Below are positions 10,611-43,739 of a stretch of 64,000 nt of DNA, in pieces. The notes under the pieces are model-generated. The model ran no database searches. It was not told where the DNA came from and saw only the letters and a program-made list of their open reading frames with translations. The stretch's first letter is position 1. The number at the start of each line of letters is the position of its first letter. The position numbers and the translations under genes were made by a program. Location of the stretch: NCBI GenBank assembly GCA_964489065.1, contig CAZAXH010000004.1:150304-214303 (forward strand), given 5' to 3'. The DNA is from an uncultured Planctomycetales bacterium (GTDB lineage Bacteria; Omnitrophota; Gorgyraeia; Zapsychrales; JANLHA01).

Positions 10611-10637
10611 TATGATTGGTTTCGTTTTAAAAACTAT

Positions 10638-12290: not shown

Positions 12291-12313
12291 AAAGGCGCAT
12301 GCCCGCCCCGCCG

Positions 12314-20727: not shown

Positions 20728-20751
20728 CCTGAAAATAAAAGTACAGCCGGA

Positions 20752-21021
20752 TCAGATGGCGTTATTTTTTCTGCCTGTTTTCCCGGATTTCTTTTTTTCG
20801 ATTTTTTCAGCTTCTTTCTTTTTCTTTAACTGCAGTGCCTGATATTTTTCCGGCATATGATACTTCATCCACACTTCCGCATATAATCTCAGCCATTCGT
20901 CCGTTGCCCTCTCAATGCCGATACTATATCCTGCTTTCTGGCTTTCAATCCACAGATGCCGATTAATTTCTTCAATGACCTGTTTATTTTTCAGCAATTC
21001 ACGAACGTCGGTGATTTTCAT
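20752..21021 (-). CDS. hypothetical 89-aa protein with Lys-rich C-terminal tail
   Basis: ATG start and a clean ORF. No family recognised. Confidence 0.45.
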   Translation of the reverse strand: MKITDVRELLKNKQVIEEINRHLWIESQKAGYSIGIERATDEWLRLYAEVWMKYHMPEKYQALQLKKKKEAEKIEKKKSGKTGRKNNAI

Positions 21022-21152
21022 ACGCCCTCCTTCGTGGTAAGAAAACTTAAGGCATAGAATTAGTTATGAAAAAAGGTTTTATTCCTTTTTCAAATTCCGC
21101 GCCAATTATATATCTTTAAAACATAAAATTCAAAACTTTTTTTATATTTATA

Positions 21153-25925: not shown

Positions 25926-25962
25926 CTTTTATCCTTTCTGATAAACACATTGAGCGAACTCC

Positions 25963-27081
25963 TTATCCTGATGCGGGACACTCCTGGCCCAGAGAGGTTT
26001 CAATCACACCGCCGCCCAGAACCGTGTCTCCCTCATATAAAACCACGGATTGTCCCGGCGTCACTGACTTTTGCGGCTCATCAAAAACAAGCCGGCTCTT
26101 CCCGGACTCCAAAACAGTCAGCCGCCCCTTCACGTCCCGAGCATTATAACGAATCCGCGCCGTGACCTCAACCGTTCGTTGCGGGATCATCGGCTGCAGG
26201 TAATTCATCTCTCCGGCCAGCAACCCTTCCGCGTAAAGATACTCTTCCGGCCCGACATAAACGGTGTTCTCATCAGGGTCAATCCTGTAAACATAAACCG
26301 GAACCCCGAGGGCGATCCCGAGCTGGTCTCTCTGGCCGATCGTGTACCGGGCGATCCCCTGATGCCGGCCCACGACCTCCCCTCTCGGATTTTTAAACGG
26401 ACCGGGAAGAAACCCCTCCGCCCCGGGTCGGGCCTGAATAAACGTTTTGTACCCACCCGGCGGGACAAAACAAATATCCTGACTTTCCGCTCTTTCTGCC
26501 GTCGGAAGTCCCCAACGGCGCGCCAGGCCCCGGACTTCTTCCTTGCTCAAATTCCCTAAAGGAAACACAATAAACGGCAGGGCCTCGGCGGCAAGCCCGT
26601 ACAGAAAATACGACTGGTCTTTATTCGCGTCCGCCCCTTTCCGAAGCCGGAAACAGCCTGTTTCGTCATAGCGGTCGATCCGGGCGTAATGCCCGGTCGC
26701 CAGATAATCCATCCCCAATTGCTTCATCAAAGCCCGCAGCGCACCGAACTTCAAATACCGGTTACACCGCACGCAGGGATTGGGCGTGCGGCCGCGGCCA
26801 TATTCCTCAATAAAATCTTTAATCACCAGATCTTCCAGGTCGCGGGAAAAATCCAGGACATGATGCGGAACCTCCAGGCACCGGGCAACGGCTCGCGCCG
26901 CCTGGATGCTTTCCTCTCCGCAGCACGCGGGCCTCCGTCCGGAGGGGGAAGGGATACTAAAACACATCGTCACCCCTTCCACTTCATAGCCCTGTTCCTT
27001 CAAAAGCGCCGCCGCCACCGAAGAATCAACCCCGCCGCTCATCGCGACCGCAACTTTCTTCCTTCCCCTGTCTTTGACCAT
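25963..27081 (-). CDS. mnmA: tRNA 2-thiouridine(34) synthase MnmA
   Basis: PP-loop VAVAMSGGVDSS. ATG at 27081 with GGGAGGG SD. The track start 27111 is GTG. Confidence 0.85.
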   Translation of the reverse strand: MVKDRGRKKVAVAMSGGVDSSVAAALLKEQGYEVEGVTMCFSIPSPSGRRPACCGEESIQAARAVARCLEVPHHVLDFSRDLEDLVIKDFIEEYGRGRTPNPCVRCNRYLKFGALRALMKQLGMDYLATGHYARIDRYDETGCFRLRKGADANKDQSYFLYGLAAEALPFIVFPLGNLSKEEVRGLARRWGLPTAERAESQDICFVPPGGYKTFIQARPGAEGFLPGPFKNPRGEVVGRHQGIARYTIGQRDQLGIALGVPVYVYRIDPDENTVYVGPEEYLYAEGLLAGEMNYLQPMIPQRTVEVTARIRYNARDVKGRLTVLESGKSRLVFDEPQKSVTPGQSVVLYEGDTVLGGGVIETSLGQECPASG

Positions 27082-27158
27082 ATCCCTCCCGCCCCCGCCG
27101 CGGCCTAACACCCCTCGCGGCTATTCCCGGCAACCGGAGAGCCGTCCCTTTCCCCCGT

Positions 27159-29417: not shown

Positions 29418-30205
29418 AATGATTTCCTCTTTCGGGCCACAATCTGCACAACCTCAAAGGTGGCCTGCACGCCATTGTGCCATTGAAAATTATAACGGTA
29501 ATACCGGTCAGCCTCTTCAAGCCACTGCCTACCGACAAAAACATCACTGTTCATCGCGTTAGCCCCGGTCGCTTTCAGCCACCGCAAAAGCGCCATCAGG
29601 CTCGTATAATGCTGACGGTTTTCCTGTCTGTTTTTATGTTCTATACTAAATCCTTTTGCTTCCAGGGCCTGAAAAACTTCTGTTTCCCGGGGAAGGCGGG
29701 ACTCTGAGATCCGCCTCCGGCCGGCATGCTCCTGCGCGGTCTCGCCCAAAGACCGGTACAATTCCCATAACGTTTTTTGCGTGAAGACCGTTAAAAGAAA
29801 CGGCCCATCCGCTTTTAAAACCCGATTGATCTGCTCAAACGCCGTCGGCAAATCATTCACCCACTGGAAGGCCAGATTCGACACGACAGCGTCAAAGCCG
29901 CTACTCCTGAAGGGCAGCCGCATCGCGTCGGCCTGCACCGTGTGAATCCGCCGGTGCCGACTCCGGGCAAAAGCCGCCATTCCGAAAGCCAGGTCCACGC
30001 CCACAACCAGAAGGCGGGGCCGCCAGCGTTTCAGTTCAGCGGCCATCCGTCCGGTTCCCATACCCACGTCGAGTACGGCTCCCTCCTCCGGAAGCCGTCC
30101 GGCCTCCGTCAGGAGTGCCCGTCCGATCTGTCTCTGTAACAGAGCGTTTCGATCATACCGGTTGGCCGACCCGGAAAAAGCCCGCTGAACTCTCCGCTGA
30201 ATCAT
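29414..30205 (-). CDS. bioC: malonyl-ACP O-methyltransferase BioC
   Basis: SAM-methyltransferase fold, start MIQRRVQRAFSGSANRYDRNALLQRQIGRAL as in BioC. Sits in the bio operon. Confidence 0.75.
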   Translation of the reverse strand: MIQRRVQRAFSGSANRYDRNALLQRQIGRALLTEAGRLPEEGAVLDVGMGTGRMAAELKRWRPRLLVVGVDLAFGMAAFARSRHRRIHTVQADAMRLPFRSSGFDAVVSNLAFQWVNDLPTAFEQINRVLKADGPFLLTVFTQKTLWELYRSLGETAQEHAGRRRISESRLPRETEVFQALEAKGFSIEHKNRQENRQHYTSLMALLRWLKATGANAMNSDVFVGRQWLEEADRYYRYNFQWHNGVQATFEVVQIVARKRKSL

Positions 30206-31044
30206 ACAACCTCCTCCGCCGATGCGCGCCCGTCATGGCCGCCGTCCACCGTCTCCAGAAACTCCCGGAGCTTGCCATTGAATTCATACGGCTTCGTCAA
30301 AAACGGAAAATGCCCGCAGTCCTGGACCCAGTCCAACGTCACGACCGGATGATCCTTCTGCATCTGCTCAAAAACAGGACGGGGGCAGATATAATCCTCG
30401 GTTCCGTTGATCATGTGGACCGGAACCCGGCAGCGCGCCAAGACTTCCCGCAGGTCCGCCGCGGCCAGAATATCGAGGAATTCCGACAGCGCCTCCCGGT
30501 CCGGCGACTCCTCCCGACGGCGGAAAGTCTGAATCCATTTATACCGGCGGCTGTTCCGCTCCGACTGCGTGAAAAGGGAGCGAAAAAATATCCTCACGAT
30601 CGCCGGATACTCCGTCCGCAGCTGCTCTTTCAGTTTCAGCACGCGGGCGGGCGTGAGGCCGTAAGGGGCCCCCTCGTTTTGCACGAACTTCGGCAAGGAC
30701 CCGGTGAAAACCAGCGCGCGGATACGGGACGATTCATGCGCCGCCAACTGCCAGGCTAACAATCCGCCGAGAGAGCTCGATACAACCCGCCAGCCTCCGT
30801 TGTCCCGCAGAAACAGCTCATGAATATCCTCCGCCATCTCCGCCAGAGACACCGGCCGCCAGGCGCTGTGCCCGTGCCCGGGAAGATCCAGGGCAACGGC
30901 CCGGTAATCGCCGCAGAAAACCTTAAACTGCTGGCGCCATATTCTCCGGTCAACGCTCCAGCCGTGCAGAAAAAGCAGGCCCGGGCCTTCCCCTTCCTCA
31001 TCGTAATGCCAGCGCAGGCCGCGGCGTGACGTTAAATAAGGCAT
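30202..31044 (-). CDS. bioH: pimeloyl-ACP methyl ester esterase (alpha/beta hydrolase, BioH-type)
   Basis: HGWSVD nucleophile-elbow context. The ATG at 31044 (MPYLTSR) overlaps the end of bioF. The track start at 31176 is a non-ATG extension. Confidence 0.65.
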   Translation of the reverse strand: MPYLTSRRGLRWHYDEEGEGPGLLFLHGWSVDRRIWRQQFKVFCGDYRAVALDLPGHGHSAWRPVSLAEMAEDIHELFLRDNGGWRVVSSSLGGLLAWQLAAHESSRIRALVFTGSLPKFVQNEGAPYGLTPARVLKLKEQLRTEYPAIVRIFFRSLFTQSERNSRRYKWIQTFRRREESPDREALSEFLDILAAADLREVLARCRVPVHMINGTEDYICPRPVFEQMQKDHPVVTLDWVQDCGHFPFLTKPYEFNGKLREFLETVDGGHDGRASAEEVV

Positions 31045-32210
31045 AATTCCTTCCCGATTGTTTTCATGCTCGTCAATAAACACGTCAAATCTTCCGGCGT
31101 GTGGCCGGCGGTCACCGTGACGCGCAACCGCGCGGTGTTCGCCGGCACAGTCGGCGGCCGGATCGCCGCGACCCAAAGGCCCTGTTCAAAAAGCTTCGCC
31201 GAAAACGCGGCCGCCCGCTTTTCGTCCCCGATCACAACAGGAATAATCGGACTCTGGGAACGCAACGTGTTAAAACCGGCGTCCCGTAACTCATCCCGGA
31301 CCTGCCGGGCGTTCCTCCACAGCGCTTCACGACGGCCGGGCTCGCTCTCGATAATCTCCAGGGCTTTCAACGACGCCGCCGCCACCGACGGCGGAAACGC
31401 CGTCGTGTAAATAAAGCTCCGTGCCCGGTTGATGATATAATCCATCATGAGCGCCGGCCCGCAGACATAAGCGCCGGCAGAGCCGAACGCCTTGGACAGG
31501 GTCCCCATCTGGAGAGCGATATCGCCGCCGCACCCGAAATGTTCCACCGCGCCCCGGCCGCCGACGCCGAAAACTCCGGCCGCGTGCGCCTCGTCCACCA
31601 TCACAACCGCCCCGCACTCTTTCGCCAGCTGCGCGATCCGATCCAGCGGCGACAGGTCCCCGTCCATACTAAAAACAGATTCGGTAATAATAACGGTTGT
31701 CCTGTATTTACCCCCGGCCTCCCGCAGCAGACGCTCCAACGCCGCCGTATCGCAGTGCGGGTAACGGCGGCACTCCGCCCGGCTCAACACGATCCCGTCG
31801 ATGATGGACGCGTGATTCAGGCGGTCCGAAAGGATCAGGTCATCCCGGCCGAACAAAGAAGAAATAATCCCGACGTTGGCCATGTACCCGCAGTTAAACA
31901 CAACACACCCTTCAGCGCCTTTAAAAGCGGCCAGGCGTTCTTCGAGCCGCCGGTGTTCGGACATGGTCCCGCAGACCAGGCGTGAAGCGCCCGCGCCGAA
32001 ACCCGACCGCTCAAACGACGCGGCCGCCGCCTCCCGCAGGCGGACATCCGCGGCCAGGCCCAAGTAATCGTTGGAACAAAAATTAATATAGTCCCTGCCG
32101 CCGACACTGACAACGCGTCCCTGCGCGCCGTCCAGCCCGCGCAAAGTCCGGTGAAGCCCCTTTTCTTCCAGGGCCTCCAGTTCCGCCTTCAGTCTCGCCT
32201 CAAAAACCAT
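31032..32210 (-). CDS. bioF: 8-amino-7-oxononanoate synthase BioF
   Basis: PLP-dependent acyltransferase family. N-terminus EARLKAELEALEEKGLHRTLRGLDG...NFCSNDYLGL is typical of BioF. Confidence 0.85.
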   Translation of the reverse strand: MVFEARLKAELEALEEKGLHRTLRGLDGAQGRVVSVGGRDYINFCSNDYLGLAADVRLREAAAASFERSGFGAGASRLVCGTMSEHRRLEERLAAFKGAEGCVVFNCGYMANVGIISSLFGRDDLILSDRLNHASIIDGIVLSRAECRRYPHCDTAALERLLREAGGKYRTTVIITESVFSMDGDLSPLDRIAQLAKECGAVVMVDEAHAAGVFGVGGRGAVEHFGCGGDIALQMGTLSKAFGSAGAYVCGPALMMDYIINRARSFIYTTAFPPSVAAASLKALEIIESEPGRREALWRNARQVRDELRDAGFNTLRSQSPIIPVVIGDEKRAAAFSAKLFEQGLWVAAIRPPTVPANTARLRVTVTAGHTPEDLTCLLTSMKTIGKELCLI

Positions 32211-32243
32211 ATCCCTTTGCTCCCGACCACCGCACCGTCCTGC

Positions 32244-33206
32244 TCAATCCAAAAATTCCACGTCCCCGGTCATCTTTTTGATTAAATCCCCGTCGGCGTT
32301 CAGCACAACCAGCCCGCCGTTATCCGACAGGTCCACCGCCCTGCCTTCCACCGCCTTATGATGCTCCGAGATGCGCACGCGGCGTCCGAGCGTCACGGAC
32401 AACTCCTTCCACCGCTCCAGGACCGGAGGAAAACGGCGCTCCAGAAGGCAATCATACCAGTATTCCATACGCCTTAAAACCGCCTGCAGGCATGCCACAC
32501 GGCTCACTTTACGGCCCAGCTCCGCTTTTAAAGAGGTCGCCTGCGGCGGCAAATGGGCTTTACCAGTATTAACGTTCAGGCCCAAGCCGACGACCACAAA
32601 ATGGACCCGGTCCACCTCCGCATTCATCTCTGTCAAAATCCCGGCCACTTTTTTCCTTTGTATTAAAATATCGTTCGGCCACTTGATGACTGCCTCAAGG
32701 CCCGTGGTCTGCCGGACAGCTTCACAGACGGCGATCGCCGCGGCGAACGTGATCCAGCTCACCTCCAGCGGCGAAAGCAACGGATACAAAATCATGGACG
32801 CGTAAATCCCCTTGCCTTTGGGGGAAAGCCAAGCCCGGCCCATCCGCCCCCGGCCTTGGCTTTGGGTTTCCGCGCAGACCAGGGCACCTTCCCGACAGTG
32901 ATACCCCTCGGCCAGCCGGAACGCCTCGTCCATGGTGGACGTCAGGGTTTCATAACAGAACACCTCCTGCCCCAGAAACCGCGTACCCAGCCCCGGGCGT
33001 ATTTCCCAGGGGAGCAGCTTGTCCGGGGCTGACTTCAGATGATATCCTCGGCGGGGAACCGCTTTGATCCGGTAACCGGCATCCCTCAACTCATGGATAT
33101 ACTTCCAGACAGCGGCCCGGCTTATTTTCAGATGCTGGCTTAATTTCTGTCCGGACACAAAAGTAGTGTTGGATTTTAAATACTGGATGATTTCTTCCGG
33201 GATCAT
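32244..33206 (-). CDS. birA: bifunctional biotin-protein ligase / biotin operon repressor BirA
   Basis: N-terminal winged HTH (VSGQKLSQHLKISRAAVWKYIHELRDAGYRI) plus BPL catalytic domain. First gene of the operon. Confidence 0.85.
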   Translation of the reverse strand: MIPEEIIQYLKSNTTFVSGQKLSQHLKISRAAVWKYIHELRDAGYRIKAVPRRGYHLKSAPDKLLPWEIRPGLGTRFLGQEVFCYETLTSTMDEAFRLAEGYHCREGALVCAETQSQGRGRMGRAWLSPKGKGIYASMILYPLLSPLEVSWITFAAAIAVCEAVRQTTGLEAVIKWPNDILIQRKKVAGILTEMNAEVDRVHFVVVGLGLNVNTGKAHLPPQATSLKAELGRKVSRVACLQAVLRRMEYWYDCLLERRFPPVLERWKELSVTLGRRVRISEHHKAVEGRAVDLSDNGGLVVLNADGDLIKKMTGDVEFLD

Positions 33207-33354: not shown

Positions 33355-33383
33355 TTGACAAAAGCACGGCTCAATGCTATATT
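33355..33383 (+). promoter_or_regulatory. sigma70-type promoter for tRNA-Ala
   Basis: TTGACA, 17 nt, TATATT, ending 15 nt before the tRNA 5' end. Confidence 0.55.
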
Positions 33384-33398: not shown

Positions 33399-33474
<76 letters not shown>

Positions 33475-33494: not shown

Positions 33495-33890
33495 TTGAAA
33501 AGCTTTCGGGTTGTTTTATTTATCGGCATTATTGAAATTCTGATTGGCGGGGGGACACTCCTGGGAACGGTGTGGGCCGTGTTGCTGGGATCCAGCACCA
33601 AACCAAACAACGTTCTGTTCTTTGTTATTACGGCCGCTTTAACATCGTTTTCCATCGGCGTCGGCATTCTTCGGTTCAAAAAGCTGGCTTACCGGGCGTT
33701 GCTTTACTTCGCATCCGTGGTGCTCTTAAGCAAATTGCTGATTTTCTTGGGGATCATACATCTTAACGGCGCCCTGGAAACCGTGGTGCCGTCCCCGGTT
33801 AAAAACGGCATGTCCGTCTTCTATCACGGATTTGTCATTTATTCCCTGCTACAGAACGACATCAAAAAGATCTTTCACATTTGGCCGTAA
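33495..33890 (+). CDS. small membrane protein (131 aa, 4 TM) between two tRNA genes
   Basis: Clean ORF with hydrophobic helices. No family recognised. Confidence 0.5.
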   Translation: MKSFRVVLFIGIIEILIGGGTLLGTVWAVLLGSSTKPNNVLFFVITAALTSFSIGVGILRFKKLAYRALLYFASVVLLSKLLIFLGIIHLNGALETVVPSPVKNGMSVFYHGFVIYSLLQNDIKKIFHIWP

Positions 33891-33908: not shown

Positions 33909-33992
33909 GCTGGAGTGGCGGAATTGGCATACGCGCTGGTCTCAAAAACCAGTGAGGGCAACCTCATGAGGGTTCAACTCCCTCCTCCAGCA
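33909..33992 (+). tRNA. tRNA-Leu (anticodon CAA), type II with long variable arm, no encoded CCA
   Basis: Acceptor GCTGGAG/CTCCAGC, 3-bp D stem with 11-nt D loop, anticodon stem CTGGT/ACCAG with loop CT-CAA-AA, variable hairpin GTGAGG-gcaa-CCTCAT, T arm GAGGG-TTCAACT-CCCTC. Confidence 0.8.
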
Positions 33993-34073
33993 CTTAATTT
34001 TATATCCCCTCAACGACAATCTATTTCTTAATCTCCCCTACCGGGCCATTTTTGATTAAAACGGCCGCGCTTA

Positions 34074-34102
34074 TTGACAGAACCCGAATATTTAGGTATA
34101 TT
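34074..34102 (+). promoter_or_regulatory. sigma70-type promoter of the giant gene
   Basis: TTGACA, 17 nt, TATATT, about 95 nt upstream of the ATG at 34201. Confidence 0.5.
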
Positions 34103-34200: not shown

Positions 34201-37200
34201 ATGACTATCTTTCATAAAAACAGGCCATTAGTCCGCAGGTGTTTTACGCTCAATCTGGCGCTTATTTTTTTCCTGACATCCCTGGGGGGTGTTTGTCCGG
34301 TTTCTGCACAGGAACTGCTTAAGACCAGCGTCGCGTTGCCCTCCCCGGGCACGATGGTTCTTCCCACCTCAGAATACACCCCGATGACCATCAAAGGCAT
34401 CACGATCTATCCGGACGACCCTTTTAAATTTGATTTCATCATGAACACCGGGAATTCCGGGCTGGAGGGCGAAGCGTTCAAGACTGAATCACGGCTTTTA
34501 ATCTCGTATTTTCTGGCGTCTTTAACGACCCCGGAAGAGGACATGTGGGTCAATTTGTCTCCAGAGGAGAAAAACCGGGTCATCCCGGAAAATCTCGGCT
34601 CCACCGGGTTGGGAGTCGACATGCTGGCCCAGGATTACCTTTTAAAACAATTGACGGCGTCGATGATCTATCCTGAAAATGACCTGGGCCGGGATTTCTG
34701 GGCAAGGATTTATAAAAAAGTCTATGCCCTCTACGGGCACATAAACGTCCCGATTAACACCTTTAATAAGGTGTGGATACTCCCGGATCAGGCGGAAGTC
34801 TATGAAAAAGGTGAAAACGCGTTTATCGTCACGCAGCATCTGAAAGTATTACTGGAAGAGGACTATAAAGTCTTTAAAAGCCATCTTGAGAACAAACAGC
34901 TGGGCATGGAGAACATCCGGGAAGAAGACGCGGTGGTCCTGCAGGACACCACCTCCGATATTGTCCGGGAGGTGCTTATCCCTGAAATAGAAAAAGAAGT
35001 CAACCACGGGAAAAATTTCGCGAGACTCCGGCAAATTTTCAGCGCCATGATCCTGGCCACCTGGTATAAAAAAACCCTGAAAGATTCGCTTCTGGGGCAG
35101 GTCTATGTTGATCAGGCGAAAACAAAAGGCGTGGATGTCGAGGATAAAGAGCTTAAACAAAGAATCTATAATCAATATATTGAAGCGTTCAAAAAAGGCG
35201 TCTTCAATTATATTAAGGAAGATTACGATCAGGTCGAGCGCAAAAGCGTTCCCAGGAAATATTTCTCCGGCGGTATTGACGTGCGTTCCAGCGCCATCAC
35301 GGAGAAAAATTTATCTGTGTTGTCCGGGCCGATTCAACAGCAGCCCCCTCGTGTCCGAGAGGCCTTTACGTCGCCTTTGGGCGAAAATCAGAAAGTGGCT
35401 GTCGGCCTAGTCCTGGCCGGGGCTGACCAGGATTTGTTAAACGCCTGGTTAGCAGAAAACGCCTCGTCCCCTATTGTCGAAGCCGTGGACACGACCCCGC
35501 CGGCTGGCGGATATGTCACGGCCGATCTGAACGCGCCTTTAGAAGTGGACGTGCGCATTCGGATTCAAAAGACGCCCGTGCCGTTGGATATCAATAATTT
35601 GATTGTCACGCTTCATACCGAACTGTTTACCGAAAAGGAAAAAAATTTTATAAGGCCGAACGAAGGAACCATCCCCTGGCGGGACATCGTGGTGCCTCCC
35701 GAGAAAATTACCCCGGCGACAGACAGCGCTGGCCGGATTATTCCCAACGTTTTTAACGCCAAGGTGGACATTGTCCCCACCCGGACCGGAGCATACGCGT
35801 TTAAAGTCAATGCCCGGACACGTCAGCAGGATCAGCCTGTTTGGGTGCAGGGAGAAAACACAACCGTCCAGGTGGACCTTCTGCCCACATGGCTTGACAA
35901 GAATCAGACGCACCCGATGTACGTTTTCCAGGATGATGTAAAGCTGCGGAACTTTCCTGCGAATTGGACGGGGCTTAATGCTTACCTTAAGCAGACCGCC
36001 GAAGAGACCGGGAAAAATTTCTTTATGATCTCGCCGTTTTTCCCGACCCAGGCGGAGAGCCCGTTTGCCCCGGTATCGGTCTACGCGCTCTCTCCGCGTT
36101 TGATCGATTGGCAGGCGGTGGAAGACCGGGGCGAGCATCCTTTTGAAAAATTCCGCGATTTCCGACACAATGCCTCGCAAGCCCGCCGGGAAGCGTTCGA
36201 GCGGTTCCGGCGCGGCAATCTCCCGATTCAGCAATACGCTGATTTGCTCCGGGAAAGGATCCAAAACCGCCGGGATGTGACTGTCTACGGGGTGAATTAT
36301 TCAGATTTCGCGTATCTCAATTCAGAAGAAATTTCGGAATATTTAATTTATGAACAGTTTGTCAACCTGGAACAGCTCTACGCCCTTTTAAAATACCAGC
36401 GGGAACAGGGGAATCATGTGGTCGGGGACCTGCCCTTTTTCCGATCTATCGTGGGAGTCGAAACCCGGTATGAACCGAATAATTTCGCCCATGACGGAGA
36501 CAACATAGATAACCCGGGTTTTATGGGGAATAAAAAGGTGCATGACCTGGCGGCCTGGGATGAAGTGGCGATCGACCAGCGCGTGCAGAACGGCGAGAAA
36601 GACCCGCGGATTCTCCCGTTCGAATATTGGAATAATCTTTTCCATAAGGTGTTCCTGGACCGCCGCACCCGGATTCACGGCTGGAGGATTGACGCTTTTC
36701 ATATGTACGGCCGGGGGTCATCCAAAGACAATGCCGCCAGGCTGATTTGGGGCACCTCCCTGTGGGAGGAATTCGCCCGTTATTTTCAAGCCCATGATTT
36801 GTTCCTCATGGCCGAACAGCTCGGCGGGGACGCCCATGCGTATTATCATTTTCAACGGCTGGGTCTCTTACAGAACGCCTTTATCCTGGACCTGAAGGCG
36901 AAAAAGCTGGACGCGTTTCTGTCCGACCTCGCCTGGATTTCCAGAGGACTGGCGGTCACCGTTGCCGACACGCATGACAGCGCCCGCTGGGCGGAAGAAT
37001 ATTTCCGTATGTTTGAAGAAGTCACGGGGCTCGCGATGACGAGGCCGGATGACCGGGCCGTCCAGGAAAAAATATTGAACTTGGCTGGGCCAATTTTCCT
37101 GGGACTTTTAATGCTCGGCCCCAAGTTGGAAACCGCCCTGCTCAGCCTTGGGGAACACGCGACCCAGGCTCCCATCAAAAGGGAGTTCCGGGATGAGAAG

Positions 37201-40200
37201 GGTGAATCGGTCATTGGGTCGGCCTGGGGCACTGCGGCGATGGGGCGGGTCGATTTGTCGGCCTGGGTCAAACGGTTCACCCGGATCAGGGAGGAAAATC
37301 CGGCAGTGAGCCGTTCGGAAATGGTGGTGCTTTCTAACAACAGCCCTCAAAACATGGTATCGGTAGCCAAAGTGTTTCAGGATAACAAATTATTATTCAT
37401 CGGCAATTTTTATAAAGAGGCCAAAACCATGGAATTGCCTGTTTTTCAATTTCCGGGATTCGGGATCGCCGCAGAGGATATAGCGGTGTTCCGCAACGCC
37501 CTTGCCCCCGAGGAGGAAATCCGGGTGGAACAAGGGAAGCTGACCTATCCCCTCGCTCCCGGGCAGGTGGCCGTGCTGAAACTGGAATCTGTGCGGAAAC
37601 CGGGGCCCACGTCCTCCCCCGTGACGCAAAGATGGAACTGGGCGGAGAATAAGAATAAAGCTGTGATGCTGTTGCCGGGTGAAACGTTGTTGATTGAGAA
37701 TGAGGAGTTTTTTGAACTGATTATTACAGAACATAATTTTGGGGGGACACAGACACTTTTTTGTGAAGCGGACCATAAATACATCGGCGATAAGTCGCAT
37801 CTTTATTATAAGCTTGAATTGACGGACTTAGACCCTGGAGATTATTCCATAATGTTTCGTTGGCCCGGGAAGCAGACCAACGGCGGCTGGGAAGGAGAGT
37901 CGGGGGGACCCCGGTCTTATCATTTTAAGGTTTTACCTGACATAACCCGTTTGAAATCTCCATATGAAAAATTGTCCATCCGAGTAACGTCCGGAGATCT
38001 AGGCCTCTCACCTGTATGGAACCCATTTCTAAAGTATCCGCATTATACAGTTACTTTATCCAACGGGATAGGAACGATTTTTAGAATACCGATCCGACCT
38101 CTCGTCCGGGAACAAAAAGACGGCGCTATCCGGGTGGGGGGCTATGTGAGCAAATATGACGGGTTCCTGGTCAACCTCAAGACAAGAGGCACTCCAGATG
38201 AAAATAAGCGGGCCATCTACCGGGGTGCAGTTGAGGATGTAAATGTAAAATTTCGTGATGGGAGTGAGCAGTTGTATTCCCTGGATATAAGAAGCTTTGA
38301 CCATTTTGAACGTTATCCGTCTCCGACCTGGACTTATGTTTTGAAAAAAGATTATTCCGGAATTGTGGTCATAGAAAAAACCGCGGTTGTCAAACAGGGA
38401 GAGAACACATTTGCCTTTCAGTACCGCGTTGTTTCAGCGACACCGGAAGTTGATGCCGTGGAGTTGTTCGTGCGGCCGGATATGGACCAGCGATCCCACC
38501 ATGAAACTACGACAATTACGCCAGAAGGCCTAGGCTGGTGGCAGGGAAAACAGCGGGTTGTATCCGACCAGAATGGAAACTCTATCGGGTTTGAATTGGG
38601 CGTCATTAATGAGGCTTGGAAACAGTGGTATCCGGGTTTTGAGGGGGTTCGGATGACAATCACAAAGGGCCGTTATCAAGAGTCCCCTGAGCGCCATTAT
38701 AGCGACAATCCGCTGGAAGAGGAGCGAGGACAACATAATTACAGCGACAGTTACAGCCCAGGATTCTTTTCCGCCATATTAAAAGCCGGGGAAACCACCA
38801 GCCTGGTTTTATCCAGCCGCGATATTAACACTCCCGACCATGTTTATGGGGAACAGGATGTTACGACTTTGATTCAAGAGAATACAACTCTTCTGCAAGA
38901 CCGTTTGGCTTTGATTAAGAATAAAGCGACAAGAGATGATGTCTTTGTGCAAAAACTGGTCCTGGCCCTCTGGGAGTTTATTGTTCAAAGGGACGAGTTT
39001 TATACTGTTATTGCCGGTCACCCCTGGTTTTCTGATTGGGGCCGGGACACCTTCATTGCTTTTGACGGAGTTTTGGCTGCAGGCATGTATGATGTGGCCC
39101 GGGGGTTGATTCTGGCTTTCGGGAGGTTTGAAGGTAAAGACGGAAACAAGGGGATGTTGCCCAATATTATCACAGGCGAGGAAGCAGGGAATTGGGATAC
39201 GGTGGATGCGCCGTTATTGTATGTGCTGGCTGTCCGGAATTATATTCAAAGCACGGGGGATGCCGGCATTTTGGAAACAAAAACCGGGGGCCGGACTGTG
39301 AGGGCGATTATTGAGTCCATCACGGAAGGGTATCAGCAGGGCACAAAAAACGGGATTCGCATGGACGCTGAGTCGGGGTTGATTTATTCCCCTGCCCATT
39401 ATACCTGGATGGATACGAATTATCCCGCGGCCACACCCCGGGAAGGCTACACGGTTGAGAACAACGCCCGATGGTTTGATGTTTTAAGTTGGCTTGCCGA
39501 GCTCGCCAGAAGGGACAATGATTTACCCAAGGCCGAGACTTATGCCCGGTTGGCGGCACGGGTCAAAGAAAGTTTTAATACGTATTTTTGGAATGAAAAC
39601 AGCGGCTATCTGGCGGATACAGTTTTCGCCGGCCAAGGGGTCAGCGCGAAAGACGGACGACCGGATCTTTCAATCCGGCCTAATCAGTTGATTGCGGTGC
39701 TTTCTGTCTATGGACTCTTATCTTCGGAACGCCAGCGAAAGATCGTTGAACTCGTTGAGAAAAAACTTCTGGTCCCAACGGGATTACGCACGCTGTCGGA
39801 AGACACCCAGTCCAGCGCGGAATTTCCTTATCGCGGCACGTATGAAGGCAGTGACGATTATGGCCGAAAACAAGCGTATCATAACGGCACGGTATGGCCG
39901 CACCTTTTCGGAGATTGGGCGCTGGCGTATGTTATGGCGAATAATTTTTCACAGCAAAGCAAAGAACATGTTTTACCGTATTTCACCACTCTGGATGAAC
40001 ATCTCAAGCAAGCCGGGGTAGGGAGTGTTTCGGAAGTGCGTGACGGGAATTATCCCCATCGGCCGAGAGGCACGGATGCCCAGGCCTGGAGTGTCGCGCT
40101 GCCCTTGGCCGCCTATACGAAAATACAGTATGGCGAACAAGACGACCAGGCTTCCTCTCCGATAGGAGTCTCGGGGCCAGGCGTCGCAGAATCGATAGTC

Positions 40201-40422
40201 CCGCAAGCCTCCCTTCAGACTTCTTCCGACCTTTCGCAGGATCTGGGGGGCATTAATCTTAACGCGGACCTGATGAACCTTAAAATCCAGCGTGACGAAC
40301 ACGGCCTCCCTCTCCCCCTGCCGCAACAACCTTTAATGGATATACAGGTGGAAGGCTTTTCCCCTGTCATCTTTTACGTCGTCCCCGTAGATATCCTGCT
40401 TTTGACCGGCCTGAAATCTTAA
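34201..40422 (+). CDS. 2073-aa secreted multidomain alpha-glucan-active enzyme: signal peptide, ~550-aa unknown N-domain, GH77 4-alpha-glucanotransferase domain, beta-rich middle region, archaeal-type glycogen-debranching (GDE_N/GDE_C, amylo-alpha-1,6-glucosidase) module, then a Pro-rich linker and hydrophobic C-terminal tail
   Basis: GH77 motifs: FFMISPFFPTQAESPFAPVSVYALSPRLID (compare LPLGPTGYGDSPYQSFSAFAGNPYLID), VVGDLPFF, WRIDAFHMYGRG (compare RIDHFRGF), TVADTHDS. GDE_C motifs: AGHPWFSDWGRDTFIAFDG, NGTVWPHLFGDWA. N-terminal signal MTIFHKNRPLVRRCFTLNLALIFFLTSLGGVCPVSA. C-terminus ...PLPLPQQPLMDIQVEGFSPVIFYVVPVDILLLTGLKS. Confidence 0.8.
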   Translation: MTIFHKNRPLVRRCFTLNLALIFFLTSLGGVCPVSAQELLKTSVALPSPGTMVLPTSEYTPMTIKGITIYPDDPFKFDFIMNTGNSGLEGEAFKTESRLLISYFLASLTTPEEDMWVNLSPEEKNRVIPENLGSTGLGVDMLAQDYLLKQLTASMIYPENDLGRDFWARIYKKVYALYGHINVPINTFNKVWILPDQAEVYEKGENAFIVTQHLKVLLEEDYKVFKSHLENKQLGMENIREEDAVVLQDTTSDIVREVLIPEIEKEVNHGKNFARLRQIFSAMILATWYKKTLKDSLLGQVYVDQAKTKGVDVEDKELKQRIYNQYIEAFKKGVFNYIKEDYDQVERKSVPRKYFSGGIDVRSSAITEKNLSVLSGPIQQQPPRVREAFTSPLGENQKVAVGLVLAGADQDLLNAWLAENASSPIVEAVDTTPPAGGYVTADLNAPLEVDVRIRIQKTPVPLDINNLIVTLHTELFTEKEKNFIRPNEGTIPWRDIVVPPEKITPATDSAGRIIPNVFNAKVDIVPTRTGAYAFKVNARTRQQDQPVWVQGENTTVQVDLLPTWLDKNQTHPMYVFQDDVKLRNFPANWTGLNAYLKQTAEETGKNFFMISPFFPTQAESPFAPVSVYALSPRLIDWQAVEDRGEHPFEKFRDFRHNASQARREAFERFRRGNLPIQQYADLLRERIQNRRDVTVYGVNYSDFAYLNSEEISEYLIYEQFVNLEQLYALLKYQREQGNHVVGDLPFFRSIVGVETRYEPNNFAHDGDNIDNPGFMGNKKVHDLAAWDEVAIDQRVQNGEKDPRILPFEYWNNLFHKVFLDRRTRIHGWRIDAFHMYGRGSSKDNAARLIWGTSLWEEFARYFQAHDLFLMAEQLGGDAHAYYHFQRLGLLQNAFILDLKAKKLDAFLSDLAWISRGLAVTVADTHDSARWAEEYFRMFEEVTGLAMTRPDDRAVQEKILNLAGPIFLGLLMLGPKLETALLSLGEHATQAPIKREFRDEKGESVIGSAWGTAAMGRVDLSAWVKRFTRIREENPAVSRSEMVVLSNNSPQNMVSVAKVFQDNKLLFIGNFYKEAKTMELPVFQFPGFGIAAEDIAVFRNALAPEEEIRVEQGKLTYPLAPGQVAVLKLESVRKPGPTSSPVTQRWNWAENKNKAVMLLPGETLLIENEEFFELIITEHNFGGTQTLFCEADHKYIGDKSHLYYKLELTDLDPGDYSIMFRWPGKQTNGGWEGESGGPRSYHFKVLPDITRLKSPYEKLSIRVTSGDLGLSPVWNPFLKYPHYTVTLSNGIGTIFRIPIRPLVREQKDGAIRVGGYVSKYDGFLVNLKTRGTPDENKRAIYRGAVEDVNVKFRDGSEQLYSLDIRSFDHFERYPSPTWTYVLKKDYSGIVVIEKTAVVKQGENTFAFQYRVVSATPEVDAVELFVRPDMDQRSHHETTTITPEGLGWWQGKQRVVSDQNGNSIGFELGVINEAWKQWYPGFEGVRMTITKGRYQESPERHYSDNPLEEERGQHNYSDSYSPGFFSAILKAGETTSLVLSSRDINTPDHVYGEQDVTTLIQENTTLLQDRLALIKNKATRDDVFVQKLVLALWEFIVQRDEFYTVIAGHPWFSDWGRDTFIAFDGVLAAGMYDVARGLILAFGRFEGKDGNKGMLPNIITGEEAGNWDTVDAPLLYVLAVRNYIQSTGDAGILETKTGGRTVRAIIESITEGYQQGTKNGIRMDAESGLIYSPAHYTWMDTNYPAATPREGYTVENNARWFDVLSWLAELARRDNDLPKAETYARLAARVKESFNTYFWNENSGYLADTVFAGQGVSAKDGRPDLSIRPNQLIAVLSVYGLLSSERQRKIVELVEKKLLVPTGLRTLSEDTQSSAEFPYRGTYEGSDDYGRKQAYHNGTVWPHLFGDWALAYVMANNFSQQSKEHVLPYFTTLDEHLKQAGVGSVSEVRDGNYPHRPRGTDAQAWSVALPLAAYTKIQYGEQDDQASSPIGVSGPGVAESIVPQASLQTSSDLSQDLGGINLNADLMNLKIQRDEHGLPLPLPQQPLMDIQVEGFSPVIFYVVPVDILLLTGLKS

Positions 40423-40629: not shown

Positions 40630-42198
40630 ATGTCCAACGATCCCTTAAGCCGCGCCGATGAAAATAACCGGGCCACGCGCCCTTTAAACCTATCCGCGAT
40701 GCGATTCCTTAAAGCAGCCCTGATCCCAGCGCTTCTTTTCATCATCAATTTTCTGCTGCGCCTCTCTTTAATTAGCAAAGGCCCCTATCATCTGGACTGT
40801 GTCACCATGGCCTACCAGGCCGGGCTCACGGTCAAGACCGGCACGCTCCATTACCTCCACAGCCACGGGTTCCCCTTGAGCGCCATACTCGCCGCCTTCA
40901 GCGCCTGGCTGGCGCAGGCCTTCGGTGCCGACGCCGTGGCCGCGGTGAACGGAATGAGCGTGTTCGTCAGCGCGCTTTCTGTCCCGCTTTTCTTTATCGT
41001 CACCCAGAAACTTTCCAGGAAAACCACGGCGGTCATAAGCAGCCTCTTGTTTTCGGTCAGCCCAATTTTCTTAAGCCTGTCGGTGTTCGGCAACACGCAC
41101 GTCTTAAGCCTGTTCCTCTGCTTGATGAGCGTATTCTTTATCCTTAAACTCAAAGCGCGTCCCTGTTCCAGCACCCTGCTGACGGCAGGGATTACGCTGG
41201 GATTATGGGGCGCGGCCCGCGTGCAGGACTTTCTCACCCTAGTGCCCGCGGTTCTGCTCCTCTTAAGGTTTCCCGTTATCCCCTCCGACGCCCCAAGGGG
41301 AAAACCGCTGACCACGCGGGCCCAAACGGCCGTGACAGCCTTGGCCATTGCGTTCATCATCACCGGATTATTCTACCTCCCGCTGGTCATGGCGACTCCG
41401 GGAAAAAGCCTGCGCCCGTTCTGGGATTTTGAAATCGCCAGCCGACTGAACATCCTGTCCCTCCGCTATCTTCTCCTCTCCCTGATTTATGGAGCCGATA
41501 ATTTTTTGCCGCTGGGCCTCGTGCTTATTGCCCTGGGCCATGTTATTATATATAGAATCAATAAATCTTTAGGCACGTTTTTAACGGCCTGGTACGCAGT
41601 TCCGCTTGTGGTGTTCAGCCGCCTGGATATTGTTATGCCCCGGTTTTTCCTGTGCGCCCTGCCGGCGCTCTACATCCTGGCGGGAACGGTGCTGGCCGCG
41701 CTATACCGACAGCGCAAAGTCTATTTTAAAACGATGACTCTCCTGATTATCCTTCTATGGGGCTGGCTGTGTTTTTACCGGATTTATCCCGTCCTTGACT
41801 TCCGGCACCGGCACGCGCTGTTGCCCGATTATATCCGCTGGATCAAGGACCAGGCCGGGCCGGGCGCCCTGATGATTCCCGGAGACGAAGGTGATTTTCT
41901 GCGATATTATAACGGGCCCGGCCTCCTGCGCCTCCCGCTCAAAATTCGGACCTCGTATTCCGAGGCGGAGCTTAATTCTTTCAAACAAAAAATCGACCGG
42001 GCGCTCGCCGGCGGCCGGGACGTCTATATCAATTACATCACCATGTCCGCCCACAACCCGCGGCGCCAGTTCACGGATTTTCTCCAAAAAAACTACTCGC
42101 TGATCTGCCTCGGAGAAAAACTTTATGAAGACTGGCACCGAGGTGCGATGTACCAGTTCATTTACCCGGTGGCTGTTTACAGGATCGTCAACGAATGA
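40630..42198 (+). CDS. polytopic membrane glycosyltransferase, GT-C fold (ArnT/PMT/DUF2723-like), paralog 1
   Basis: AAGGAG SD. About 11 TM helices followed by a ~120-aa C-terminal soluble domain. Conserved blocks shared with the downstream paralog: RLSLISKGPYHLDC, RHRHALLP, EDWHRG. Confidence 0.6.
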   Translation: MSNDPLSRADENNRATRPLNLSAMRFLKAALIPALLFIINFLLRLSLISKGPYHLDCVTMAYQAGLTVKTGTLHYLHSHGFPLSAILAAFSAWLAQAFGADAVAAVNGMSVFVSALSVPLFFIVTQKLSRKTTAVISSLLFSVSPIFLSLSVFGNTHVLSLFLCLMSVFFILKLKARPCSSTLLTAGITLGLWGAARVQDFLTLVPAVLLLLRFPVIPSDAPRGKPLTTRAQTAVTALAIAFIITGLFYLPLVMATPGKSLRPFWDFEIASRLNILSLRYLLLSLIYGADNFLPLGLVLIALGHVIIYRINKSLGTFLTAWYAVPLVVFSRLDIVMPRFFLCALPALYILAGTVLAALYRQRKVYFKTMTLLIILLWGWLCFYRIYPVLDFRHRHALLPDYIRWIKDQAGPGALMIPGDEGDFLRYYNGPGLLRLPLKIRTSYSEAELNSFKQKIDRALAGGRDVYINYITMSAHNPRRQFTDFLQKNYSLICLGEKLYEDWHRGAMYQFIYPVAVYRIVNE

Positions 42199-43739
42199 AA
42201 AACCGCCTTCCCTTTCATCCCGCTCTGATCCCTCTTTTATTCGGAGGGCTAAACCTGCTGTTACGGCTATCGGTAATCAGCCGGGGGCCATTTAACGGCG
42301 ACTGCCTCTCCCTGGCGATCCAGGCCGAGAAAACCCTGCAATTATTGCAACCCCAATACGTTTTCGGCACAGGCTATCCCCTGACGGTTCTCTTGGGTGC
42401 CTTGTTTTTCAGGCTGACACGGCTTTACGGCAACACCGATCCTGTCCTGGCCGTTAACCTTATGAGTGTGGTCTTAAGTTCGCTAACGGTGGCCATCCAT
42501 TACCTCGTCGTGCAAAAACTCCTGGACCGAACCGCGGCGATAGCCAGTGCGCTCTTATTGTCCGTGTTCCCCATATTTTTAGGGATATCCACCTACGGCA
42601 TGAGCCACGTCCCCAGCCTGTTGTTCCTGCATCTGGGCCTTTTATCGCTCCTGCAATTTAAGGAAACCCGCTCCGCCGCGAACTTCGCCTTAAGCGCCTT
42701 CTGGCTGGGATGCATGGGCGCCTCCCGTATTCAGGAATTCGCCCTCATGACCGTGCCCGTTTCGATCCTGCTGGGAACGCTTGTGTCCGGCGGAGGCGGC
42801 CCGCGGCCGGGCGCCAGAACAGCCTACCGCCGGTTCCTAAACAAATTCTTTTTCCTTTGGCTCGGCGCTGGTGCGACCGCGCTCCTTTTTCATCTTCCGC
42901 TTTTTCTTTTGTCCGCGCAAAACGGGTATTTCGTCCAGTTGAAACGGTACTGGGCCGCCAGCACGGCGCCGAACTTCTTAGGGTTCCTGTCGCCGGCTTT
43001 AGGCGACAGTTTTCAGGTCACATTCTTCAGCCTGACCCCCTTCGGCGCCATAGCCGCCGCGCTGGGGCTCCTCCTGCTCTTAAAAAACAAACGGTTCACA
43101 GCCCTGTTCCTGGCCGCGTGGTTCCTCTGGCCGCTCCTGTTCCTCGGCAACCTCGCCATGACAACACCGCGGTTCATCCTTATCGCGCTGATCCCGCTCT
43201 TGATTTTTTCCGGCGCGTTCTTTTCTCATCTTAAAAATTTCCCCAACACCCGTTTCCGCCTGCTCGCCAGCTTCGCTTTCGGCCTTATTTTTGTCACCAT
43301 GTTCGTCAACATCCACCCGATCCTGCGGTTCCGCCACCGGCATGAATTGCTGCCGGGTTTCGCCCGTTTCGTCCAGAAAAGCACCGAGCCCGGCGCGAAA
43401 ATCATCTGCGGGGACGAATTCCCGTTCATCATTTATTACGGCCGCCGGGACATGCTCCGCCGGCCTAACGACCCTTTCCGCATCACACCCACGGACATGG
43501 AAGTGTTCCGGGCCCGGCTGGACGAACTGCTTGCCGACGGGGTGCCTGTTTATATTACCTCCTCGGGCCTGTTCAGCTACGACCCGGGCAAACGCTTTTC
43601 CGGATTCATCCAATCTCATTACCGGCTGGAATACCAGGGCGAAACCCTTTCGGAAGACTGGCACCAGGGCGTCACCCGGCTGCGCGTCGGCGTGGAAAAA
43701 CTCTACCGGATCCAAAAGCTCCCGCGCGCGGAGCCCTAA
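42195..43739 (+). CDS. polytopic membrane glycosyltransferase, GT-C fold, paralog 2 (tandem duplicate)
   Basis: Start overlaps the upstream stop as ATGA. Same architecture and motifs: RLSVISRGPFNGDC, RFRHRHELLP, EDWHQG. Confidence 0.6.
   Translation: MKNRLPFHPALIPLLFGGLNLLLRLSVISRGPFNGDCLSLAIQAEKTLQLLQPQYVFGTGYPLTVLLGALFFRLTRLYGNTDPVLAVNLMSVVLSSLTVAIHYLVVQKLLDRTAAIASALLLSVFPIFLGISTYGMSHVPSLLFLHLGLLSLLQFKETRSAANFALSAFWLGCMGASRIQEFALMTVPVSILLGTLVSGGGGPRPGARTAYRRFLNKFFFLWLGAGATALLFHLPLFLLSAQNGYFVQLKRYWAASTAPNFLGFLSPALGDSFQVTFFSLTPFGAIAAALGLLLLLKNKRFTALFLAAWFLWPLLFLGNLAMTTPRFILIALIPLLIFSGAFFSHLKNFPNTRFRLLASFAFGLIFVTMFVNIHPILRFRHRHELLPGFARFVQKSTEPGAKIICGDEFPFIIYYGRRDMLRRPNDPFRITPTDMEVFRARLDELLADGVPVYITSSGLFSYDPGKRFSGFIQSHYRLEYQGETLSEDWHQGVTRLRVGVEKLYRIQKLPRAEP

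Follow-up and report, generated by a model that had tools for sequence, protein, structure and literature searches.

The window analysed here is a stretch of 64,000 nucleotides from a bacterial genome (assembly GCA_964489065.1, contig CAZAXH010000004.1, positions 150,304 to 214,303 of the forward strand), deposited under the name of an uncultured Planctomycetales bacterium and placed in the Omnitrophota by GTDB. It contains a gene for a giant protein of 2,073 residues. From head to tail, this protein presents a predicted signal peptide, a conserved N-terminal domain (the N-module), a putative catalytic domain of glycoside hydrolase (GH) clan GH-H, a GH133 module of the glycogen-debranching enzyme (GDE) type and, after a low-complexity linker, a conserved C-terminal element (the C-module). 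The head and the tail constitute our main finding. They are not peculiar to the giant protein, but are the two ends of a large, Omnitrophota-specific family: thousands of Omnitrophota proteins carry the same pair of ends, like bookends, around unrelated cargo.

The gene translates without internal stops, and all strings quoted in a preliminary description of this DNA, made from its letters only, are found in the translation: ITIYPDDPFKFDFIMNTGNSGLEG, PLPLPQQPL and FSPVIFYVVPVDILLLTGLKS. Its unusual length and mixed domain content raised the question of whether it is an assembly chimera, as that description had worried, or a decaying pseudogene fusing unrelated genes. The identical 2,073-residue protein (P0001) was recovered twice, however: from a 215-kb NCBI contig and from an independently assembled 23-kb Logan contig (SRR15237810). 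In addition, there are four colinear full-length orthologues, P0002-P0005, at 86, 74, 55 and 47% identity. Two independent assemblies and these four orthologues show that the gene is real and did not arise in assembly. The uninterrupted reading frame, the conservation of all catalytic residues, and the two termini, a matching pair known from 114 other proteins, speak against an artefact as well; we give that reading practically no credence and consider it effectively refuted. One fact on its side concerns another genome. There, on a 3.36-Mb contig, the closest relative is P0220 (989 residues), which begins inside the domain-C-like region and has a normal C-module at its end; this suggests a gene split or frameshifted in that genome.

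Table 1 Features of the giant gene and of the DNA just upstream, in window positions
Feature	Residues	Position	Strand	Remarks
Whole open reading frame	1-2073	34201..40422	+	ATG start, 2,073 codons and stop, uninterrupted
Sec-type signal peptide	1-36	34201..34308	+	Predicted signal peptidase I cleavage after V-S-A36, before Q37
N-module	38-375 (~335 residues)	34312..35325	+	Family-wide conserved; invariant WVNLSP, QDYxLKQ, PEIExEVNxG, YFSGG
Orthologue-specific region	376-580	35326..35940	+	Linker and likely ~120-residue beta-rich domain (about 445-570)
Clan GH-H (GH77-scoring) catalytic domain	581-1080	35941..37440	+	Pfam GH77, PDB profile match
Putative GH-H nucleophile	D831	36691..36693	+	
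Putative GH-H acid/base	E872	36814..36816	+	
Putative GH-H third carboxylate	D926	36976..36978	+	
Alpha-amylase domain-C-like beta-sandwich	~1081-1160	37441..37680	+	Profile matches
Unplaced beta-rich insert	~1161-1309	37681..38127	+	Conserved in orthologues and P0220
GDE N-terminal domain (GDE_N)	~1310-1590	38128..38970	+	Pfam, TIGR01561, homologue alignments
GDE_C, GH133 (alpha/alpha)6 amylo-alpha-1,6-glucosidase domain	1592-1966	38974..40098	+	Pfam
Putative GH133 residue	D1616	39046..39048	+	
Putative GH133 residue	D1669		+	
Putative GH133 general acid	D1738	39412..39414	+	
Putative GH133 general base	E1945	40033..40035	+	
Low-complexity linker	1976-2010	40126..40230	+	Ser/Pro/Gln-rich; from the sequence
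C-module	2011-2073 (~60 residues)	40231..40419	+	Ends at the protein's last residue
tRNA-Ala (GGC)		33399..33474	+	ARAGORN
tRNA-Leu (CAA)		33909..33993	+	ARAGORN; immediately upstream of the giant gene
Sigma-70-like promoter		34074..34102	+	TTGACA-17-TATATT, 11/12; ~100 nt before the ATG; consensus match only

The two ends and the family that shares them

When the whole protein was used as query, 2,977 of the 8,000 candidates scored were significant matches, and we examined the best 120. Most of these are long proteins (1,140-3,593 residues) with varied Pfam domains rather than glycogen enzymes. In the BLAST map, all 115 non-orthologous proteins among these top matches share residues ~1-370 with the giant protein at 43-60% identity, and 114 of the 115 also share residues ~2005-2071, at 35-57% identity. 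Between the two ends these proteins have no similarity to it, except for two shorter GH77/GDE relatives, P0023 and P0044.

Pfam assigns to the cargo domains of sugar metabolism (PGM, UDP-glucose pyrophosphorylase, PGI, aldolase, TIM, GAPDH, PGK, phosphoglycerate mutase-type, enolase, and PPDK/PEP synthase-type), domains of signalling (response-regulator receivers, GGDEF, PP2C, UbiB-type kinases), and others such as radical SAM, DnaJ and HEAT repeats; P0072 carries a glycogen synthase with a branching enzyme. The enolase of P0109, a protein of 2,795 residues that also has a PGK domain, occupies residues 2090-2536. With 364 bits against solved enolases, and with its metal-binding and catalytic motifs all in place, it gives the impression of an active glycolytic enzyme that sits behind a signal peptide.

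With the N-module (residues 38-375) as query, an exhaustive HMMER search retrieves 7,958 clusters at 50% identity, 6,096 of them at E below 1e-30. The match starts near residue 40 in nearly all of the 150 representatives listed, and earlier only in those that are N-terminally truncated. Of 217 family proteins, 180 match a hidden Markov model of the C-module once (in one of these the match falls into two neighbouring pieces), and the match ends 0-78 residues before the C-terminus; family proteins without it look truncated by contig ends. Complete members measure from 633 to 5,312 residues, with a median near 1,800. An arrangement of tandem cassettes separated by C-modules was considered and rejected, as there is one C-module match per protein, in proteins of up to 5,312 residues.

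A scan of GTDB, with one genome per species, detects at least 592 N-module loci, with several copies per genome. The records are mostly named Omnitrophota metagenome-assembled genomes; the rest are labelled "Planctomycetales" or unclassified "bacterium", which we read as placeholders. Throughout the family the bookend architecture is maintained, and it is confined to Omnitrophota. We found no description of the shared module pair in the accessible literature, with an earlier mention possible in the genome and proteome work on Candidatus Velamenicoccus archaeovorus. As far as we know, the frame is undescribed, large and lineage-specific.

The N-modules of paralogues within a genome are 55-76% identical, those of different genomes 48-71% (63% versus 59%). 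The within-genome value is barely above the between-genome one, and we rejected recent gene conversion among paralogues on that ground; such near-equality indicates an old family, held by purifying selection. That paralogous N-modules stay 55-76% identical despite unrelated cargo points to purifying selection by a shared partner. No second bookend gene was found within the window. In GCA_054039695.1 (locus L002), a second very long gene (19506-22111; 2,280 residues with faint HEAT matches) follows 5 kb downstream of the 55%-identical orthologue. This gene may itself belong to the family and would, in that case, be a hint of local clustering.

Neither module is matched by a Pfam or NCBIfam model, and the PDB returned no structural match for the N-module. 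The AlphaFold2 model of the N-module is a mixed alpha/beta fold with three hairpins, of medium confidence (predicted local distance difference test score, pLDDT, of 74). The linker before the C-module varies in length among the orthologues and has a pLDDT below 50. Modelled alone, the C-module (GGINLNxxLMNLKIQRDxxGLPLPLPQQPLxxIQVEGFSPVIFYVVPVDILLLTG) reaches a predicted TM-score (pTM) of 0.26 and shows almost no regular structure and no transmembrane helix. We read it as a probably extended peptide that would need a partner.

The preliminary description had seen PLPLPQQPL and the hydrophobic tail as a possible C-terminal anchor or sorting signal. The strings are there, but three prolines, the acidic residues that follow and the lack of a predicted helix do not suit an anchor or a sortase-like signal. 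Such a tail, whether a transmembrane anchor or a classical signal of the sortase, exosortase, rhombosortase or type IX secretion system (T9SS) kind, is very improbable in our view. It is true that the Kyte-Doolittle mean rises to 1.9 in the last 19-residue windows, that every complete family member has the motif at its C-terminus or close to it, and that the family has signal peptides, like sorted surface proteins. On the other hand, the hydrophobic end, which in the family reads GFxPVIINVxPVxNLPLLLG, contains on average 3 prolines and 3 polar or charged residues, and in the giant protein an aspartate sits in the middle of the stretch. Across the family, the 10 residues just beyond the C-module are acidic instead of basic, with a mean net charge of -2.1. 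The sequence beyond the module varies from 0 to 78 residues, and no NCBIfam or Pfam sorting-signal model (LPXTG, PEP-CTERM, GlyGly-CTERM, T9SS CTD and similar) matches.

A minority variant of the C-module occurs in P0082, P0098, P0115, P0206 and P0169. Here LQIKRDGNGVPLP is replaced by an acidic stretch, for example LEIQGEEIDVPMPAFDP or LQTQGEDMDLDISFDP, while GGIDLNP and GFxPVI are kept. The variant could represent a second docking specificity.

Catalytic domains and genomic surroundings

The preliminary description had placed an archaeal-type debranching module in this protein, and GDE_N and GDE_C (GH133) are indeed found. GDE_C scores 284 bits against a gathering threshold of 21 and covers 359 of the 367 positions of the Pfam model. 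GDE_N is matched partially, at residues 1364-1532 (58.6 bits, threshold 27); the TIGR01561 alignment begins at residue 1368, and alignments with bacterial GDE homologues begin at about 1310-1373. In an alignment to human GDE (8zeq), D1738, within the motif YTWMD, stands opposite D1261, and E1945, within SEVRDG, opposite E1502. The roles of general acid and base were proven by mutagenesis for D1261/E1502 of the human enzyme (PMC12219210) and for D1241/E1492 of Candida glabrata GDE (PMC4837477). D1616 and D1669 correspond to D1086 and D1147 of yeast GDE, which are also essential (PMC4837477).

By score and by catalytic residues, we assign the debranching part to GH133/GDE_C. Against the NCBIfam model of archaeal-type GDE (TIGR01561) it reaches 198.9 bits, below the equivalog cut-off of 364.15: the protein is a homologue, though not the protein that this model names. 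The model of eukaryotic-type GDE (TIGR01531) gives 69.3 bits, versus a cut-off of 1,399.55, and Pfam hGDE_N, hDGE_amylase and hGDE_central give no match in the giant protein at E up to 1. We know of no characterised bacterial member of GH133, nor of any characterised prokaryotic GH133 protein.

The upstream catalytic domain is more divergent. Glyco_hydro_77 (PF02446) scores 33.4 bits on the whole protein and 37.7 bits on the segment, above the gathering threshold of 25; all six relatives scanned match Pfam GH77 (best E 8.8e-21), and none matches PF00128. Nevertheless, only positions ~101-224 of the 465 in PF02446, about a quarter, are matched. A profile of the orthologues likewise aligns with PDB amylomaltases (E 4e-8) over the N-terminal half of the domain only, ending before the catalytic strands. 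There, D831, E872 and D926 are invariant in seven sequences, and the motifs GWRIDAFH, LMAEQLG and ADTHDSARW can be aligned, weakly (E about 0.06) but with order and spacing kept, to regions II-IV of the GH13 enzyme MalZ of E. coli. Region II thus reads GWRIDAFH, as in GH13, and not the GH77-type RIDH. The following region has profile matches to the C-terminal domains of trehalose synthase and alpha-amylase, as well as SusG_C and Malt_amylase_C matches in relatives. GH77 enzymes have an RIDH-type region II and are devoid of domain C.

Because of the partial GH77 match, the GH13-like GWRIDAFH and the domain-C-like sandwich, the upstream domain is best called a divergent clan GH-H member with an intact triad: GH77 by Pfam score, with GH13-like features. 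We infer that it acts as a transferase rather than a hydrolase. The earlier assignment to "GH77 rather than GH13" holds as far as the score above threshold and a glucanotransferase-like character go; it is too clean for a match confined to the N-terminal half, with GH13-like motifs and a GH13-type sandwich after the barrel. The preliminary description had also named beforehand the residues on which its two enzymatic assignments hung. The GH77 Asp/Glu/Asp triad is present as D831/E872/D926, and so are the GDE_C catalytic residues, D1738 and E1945.

The sequence between the N-module and the GH-H domain is specific to the orthologues: residues 376-580 are conserved in P0002-P0004 alone, and P0005, P0023 and P0044 have a much shorter stretch here. 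What had been taken for a single N-terminal domain of 550 residues is therefore two things, a family-wide N-module of ~335 residues and ~200 residues of orthologue-specific sequence. Within the latter, about residues 445-570 are, judged by sequence pattern only, likely to form a beta-rich domain and possibly a carbohydrate-binding module. Pfam has no match for 376-580, no family matches ~1161-1309, and no similarity is detected between 376-580 and 1161-1370 that would indicate internal repeats. A homologue search with residues 440-1365 found a single protein, P0218. The unplaced beta-rich insert of the preliminary description does exist, at ~150 residues (about 1161-1309) and not ~200: it is shorter because the domain-C-like sandwich precedes it and the GDE N-terminal region starts before its Pfam match.

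Upstream of the gene, the two tRNA genes already described are tRNA-Ala and tRNA-Leu on the same strand, and the promoter ascribed to the gene corresponds to a promoter-like site, as a consensus match. The consensus scan found 5 such sites, where 1.2 were expected from shuffles. Two of them, before tRNA-Ala (33355-33383) and before the giant gene (34074-34102), have identical hexamers and spacing, TTGACA-17-TATATT. An open reading frame of 131 residues lies between the two tRNA genes (33495-33890, forward strand). It is very hydrophobic, with several predicted membrane segments and no Pfam match, and is also called as a gene on the independent Logan contig.

The neighbourhood is that of an ordinary chromosome, with a biotin operon, mnmA and a stand-alone PGI upstream, all on the opposite strand. 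The block at 24651-33206 comprises a biotin string with a birA-like gene (32244-33206), a bioF-like aminotransferase, an alpha/beta hydrolase, a bioC-like methyltransferase and a fused BioD-BioA (27159-29417; AAA_26 and Aminotran_3). After this string come mnmA and the PGI gene (24651-25925), whose 423-residue product has no N-module. Further away on the same reverse strand, a sugar-utilisation cluster (6151-14731) encodes a GH94 protein of the cellobiose/chitobiose-phosphorylase type (12314-14731), a solute-binding protein (10638-11948), two likely permeases and an 872-residue TPR and GH2-like protein.

Directly downstream of the giant gene, on its own strand, two tandem PMT_2/TMEM260-like membrane glycosyltransferases of the protein O-mannosyltransferase/ArnT type overlap by 4 bp (40630-43739). 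The pair could glycosylate exported Ser/Pro-rich linkers. It is kept on the identical Logan contig but absent beside the 55%-identical orthologue (L002), where the neighbours are different; for this reason we do not count it as part of the system.

Location of the protein and its possible destinations

The signal peptide, judged by hand from the sequence and the hydropathy profile, is canonical, as the preliminary description had it. A basic n-region (K6, R8, R12, R13) is followed by an h-region of ~17 residues (F15-V31), with a hydropathy peak of 1.92, and by the Sec-type V-x-A site V34-S35-A36, before Q37. The same n/h/c layout, ending in (S/T/Y)-x-A before Q, is present in 114 of the 120 family members. 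Two other routes were rejected: Tat export, since the RR at 12-13 is not conserved in the family, and lipoprotein processing, since there is no lipobox and Cys32 is not conserved. The giant protein is probably exported and cleaved after A36.

We interpret it as an alpha-glucan debranching protein with two enzymes, exported through Sec and associated with the envelope of a Candidatus Omnitrophota bacterium, a reading in which our confidence is about even. The protein would leave through Sec and lose its signal peptide (residues 1-36) after A36, and its N- and C-modules would retain or assemble it at the envelope. The GH77-like clan GH-H domain (D831/E872/D926) would then move maltooligosyl stubs from branch chains to other chain ends, and the GH133 domain (D1738/E1945) would hydrolyse the remaining alpha-1,6-linked glucose. 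This would be an indirect, cofactor-free debranching as in eukaryotic GDE, from which linear maltooligosaccharides and glucose would be released for uptake. The end pair itself probably serves the whole family for targeting, retention or assembly. A single shared partner would bind the N-module, or else a C-module would do so, in the same chain or in another; the C-module would be an extended peptide for docking or sorting.

GH77, GH13 and GH133 enzymes need no cofactor, so both enzymes of the giant protein would be able to work outside the cytoplasm. Chlamydia belongs to the PVC group, in which Omnitrophota are usually placed. Chlamydia trachomatis exports GlgX, MalQ, GlgP, GlgA and GlgB and has its glycogen metabolism outside the cell (PMC4829429).

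Several observations weigh against this interpretation. The same frame of signal peptide, N-module and C-module carries PGK, GAPDH, an intact enolase and PPDK/PEP synthase-type domains, and also response-regulator receivers, GGDEF, DnaJ and radical SAM domains. Such cargo needs ATP, NAD, GTP, S-adenosylmethionine, Fe-S assembly or cytoplasmic partners. It is hard to explain if the frame always means export, and this weakens the case for export here. The GH-H assignment is weak, too: GH77 structures match only the N-terminal half, the GH13 alignment over the catalytic strands has an E of about 0.06, and the sequence is as compatible with a hydrolase as with a transferase. The signal peptide was called by eye and hydropathy. 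Finally, the N-module has no structural relative and the model of the C-module is poor; as the ends offer no structural clue, the roles proposed for them derive from the architecture.

The cargo leads to a second reading, which we judge unlikely without dismissing it: the hydrophobic N-terminus would stay uncleaved and keep the protein on the cytoplasmic side of the membrane or bound to an internal structure. The modules would then organise membrane-bound enzymes of sugar metabolism, and the giant protein would debranch the cell's own glycogen. The cargo is overwhelmingly of cytoplasmic type, with all lower glycolysis steps, PGM, UDP-glucose pyrophosphorylase, the glycogen enzymes of P0072, signalling, radical SAM and DnaJ domains, and no catalytic motif is missing from the enolase of P0109. 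Many Omnitrophota are predicted to synthesise glycogen (PMC8542988), and a 2026 preprint finds the sugar-metabolism modules in long proteins of Omnitrophota compatible with the cytoplasmic face if they are anchored by transmembrane helices only (bioRxiv 10.64898/2026.06.07.730766). Yet 114 of 120 members have a textbook Sec N-terminus, with an h-region of 12-17 residues, a c-region containing Pro or Gly and a small-x-small site. With the basic end inside, the bulk of such a protein lies outside, and an h-region of this length is too short for a stable transmembrane anchor. The C-module does not provide a transmembrane helix either. The stand-alone, cytoplasmic-type PGI encoded in the same window (24651-25925) also argues against a tether, since bookended enzymes need not be the housekeeping copies.

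A third reading would deliver the bookend enzymes into an attached prey or host cell, or onto its leaking contents; the giant protein would mobilise prey glycogen, and its sister proteins would process sugar phosphates where ATP and NAD exist. We regard this as distinctly improbable, less so than a sorting signal at the tail but more so than a tether, although it reconciles a real signal peptide with cofactor-dependent cargo. Descriptions of Omnitrophota give them an ultra-small size and host-dependent or predatory traits (PMC10066038). In Candidatus Velamenicoccus archaeovorus, described as a predator, intron RNA accumulates in dead archaeal prey (PMC13153191, PMC12583861), which implies that macromolecules of the predator reach its prey, and Chlamydia secretes glycogen enzymes into a host-derived vacuole (PMC4829429). 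The layout of a signal peptide, an N-domain of ~300 residues and a long variable passenger also resembles that of two-partner-secretion exoproteins. However, no translocation machinery is linked to the gene, whose neighbours (the biotin genes and the two PMT_2 genes) differ in the orthologue's genome, and searches of the Pfam and NCBIfam type show no similarity to known effector-delivery domains. Once transported, radical SAM cargo would still have to be loaded with Fe-S clusters.

To sum up the three locations, envelope export fits the signal peptides, a cytoplasm-facing tether fits the cargo only, and delivery to prey or host fits both.

Tentatively, and with more doubt than belief, we extend the export reading to the family: the end pair may mark an undescribed, phylum-wide export or assembly system that places a second, dedicated set of central-metabolic and signalling enzymes outside the cytoplasm. 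This set would make and degrade glycogen, run nearly all of glycolysis, and include PPDK, response regulators and diguanylate cyclases; through the debranching enzyme, glycogen of the prey or host would enter the external pathway. Its destination could be the cell surface, head-to-tail assemblies in which an N-module binds the C-module of the next chain, or the cytoplasm of the prey or host.

If the giant protein is exported, it would be an uncharacterised prokaryotic counterpart of eukaryotic GDE, built from other parts and apparently extracytoplasmic. The frame has a wider reach. In a poorly understood, uncultured phylum, ~8,000 clusters share a signal peptide, an N-module, variable cargo and a C-module, and the cargo includes catalytically intact enzymes that one would expect to be useless outside the cytoplasm. 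It bears on how ultra-small, host-dependent or predatory Omnitrophota feed and on the purpose of their oversized multi-enzyme proteins; if it is a portable targeting or assembly tag, it may also be useful for engineering.

Comparison with known systems

Like eukaryotic GDE (AGL; GH13_25 and GH133), the giant protein joins on one chain a clan GH-H domain and, after it, a GH133 (alpha/alpha)6 barrel. The GH133 acid and base of the human enzyme (D1261/E1502) and the two further essential aspartates are conserved, and the same two reactions are expected, transfer and then alpha-1,6-glucosidase action. Unlike in eukaryotic GDE, the upstream domain scores as GH77 and the GH133 part has the bacterial and archaeal layout of GDE_N and GDE_C. 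Moreover, the eukaryotic enzyme is cytosolic, whereas the giant protein has a signal peptide and the Omnitrophota N- and C-modules. Its enzymatic part would work like eukaryotic GDE without belonging to that family.

Bacterial and archaeal proteins with GDE_N and GDE_C align with it by the hundreds, at 33-37% identity over about 700 residues, from Planctomycetota, Verrucomicrobiota, Desulfobacterales and other groups; outside Omnitrophota, they are devoid of N- and C-modules. Long forms among them (P0248, P0257 and P0239; 1,150-1,230 residues) are extended by 450-600 residues at the N-terminus. Two of these three, P0248 from a metagenomic source and P0257 from the Planctomycetota, have a weak GH13 alpha-amylase-family domain before the GDE part, where the giant protein has its GH-H domain, so the fusion of GH-H and GH133 is not unique. 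The N-terminal domains of the long forms are not detectably similar to the GH77-like domain of the giant protein. Some long homologues bear the JGI label "starch synthase (maltosyl-transferring)", and the long proteins may constitute an unstudied prokaryotic class of full-length GDE-like enzymes. With the GH77 amylomaltases (MalQ) of Thermus aquaticus (1CWY) and Aquifex (1TZ7), the profile match runs over barrel strands 1-3, including the GDLPxF region; these enzymes differ in region II, which reads GWRIDAFH in the giant protein, and in having no domain-C-like sandwich after the barrel.

Chlamydia trachomatis is host-dependent and exports a debranching enzyme and a 4-alpha-glucanotransferase (PMC4829429). 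Similarly to that set, the bookend frame carries glycogen synthase with branching enzyme, PGM and the debranching pair. In Chlamydia, however, type III signals direct separate, ordinary enzymes, whereas here a Sec signal and modules frame fused ones, and the targeting parts of the two are not homologous.

The same layout is seen in the TpsA proteins of two-partner secretion, with a signal peptide, a conserved domain of ~250-300 residues and a variable passenger; the likeness fits a single shared recognition partner for the bookend family. Pfam TPS/Haemagg_act has no match in the giant protein, and its N-module is predicted as mixed alpha/beta with three hairpins instead of a beta-helix. No TpsB/Omp85 gene is adjacent in the window or at the orthologue locus, the cargo consists of globular enzymes and not of filamentous repeats, and TpsA proteins do not have a family-wide conserved C-terminal module. 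Cellulosomal enzymes with dockerin and cohesin, as well as exoenzymes with SLH domains, also display a small shared terminal module on varied secreted enzymes, and the ~60-residue C-module is of dockerin size. Pfam dockerin, cohesin and SLH give no match in the giant protein, and the bookend family differs from these systems in carrying both modules on every protein and in a cargo not limited to polymer-degrading enzymes.

A further parallel comes from the phylum itself. The giant proteins of Omnitrophota (Archaeovorins; "multi-enzyme metabolic clusters") combine the same mix of sugar metabolism, signalling and radical SAM behind signal peptides or membrane segments. Their localisation has been noted as a puzzle before (bioRxiv 10.1101/2023.11.21.568195; bioRxiv 10.64898/2026.06.07.730766). 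Those published giants measure at least 10,000-30,000 residues and have no N-/C-module pair described, whereas the bookend family spans 633-5,312 residues. As far as we know, the enzyme itself is a variation on the known debranching theme of GH-H and GH133, and the novelty lies in the frame that surrounds it.

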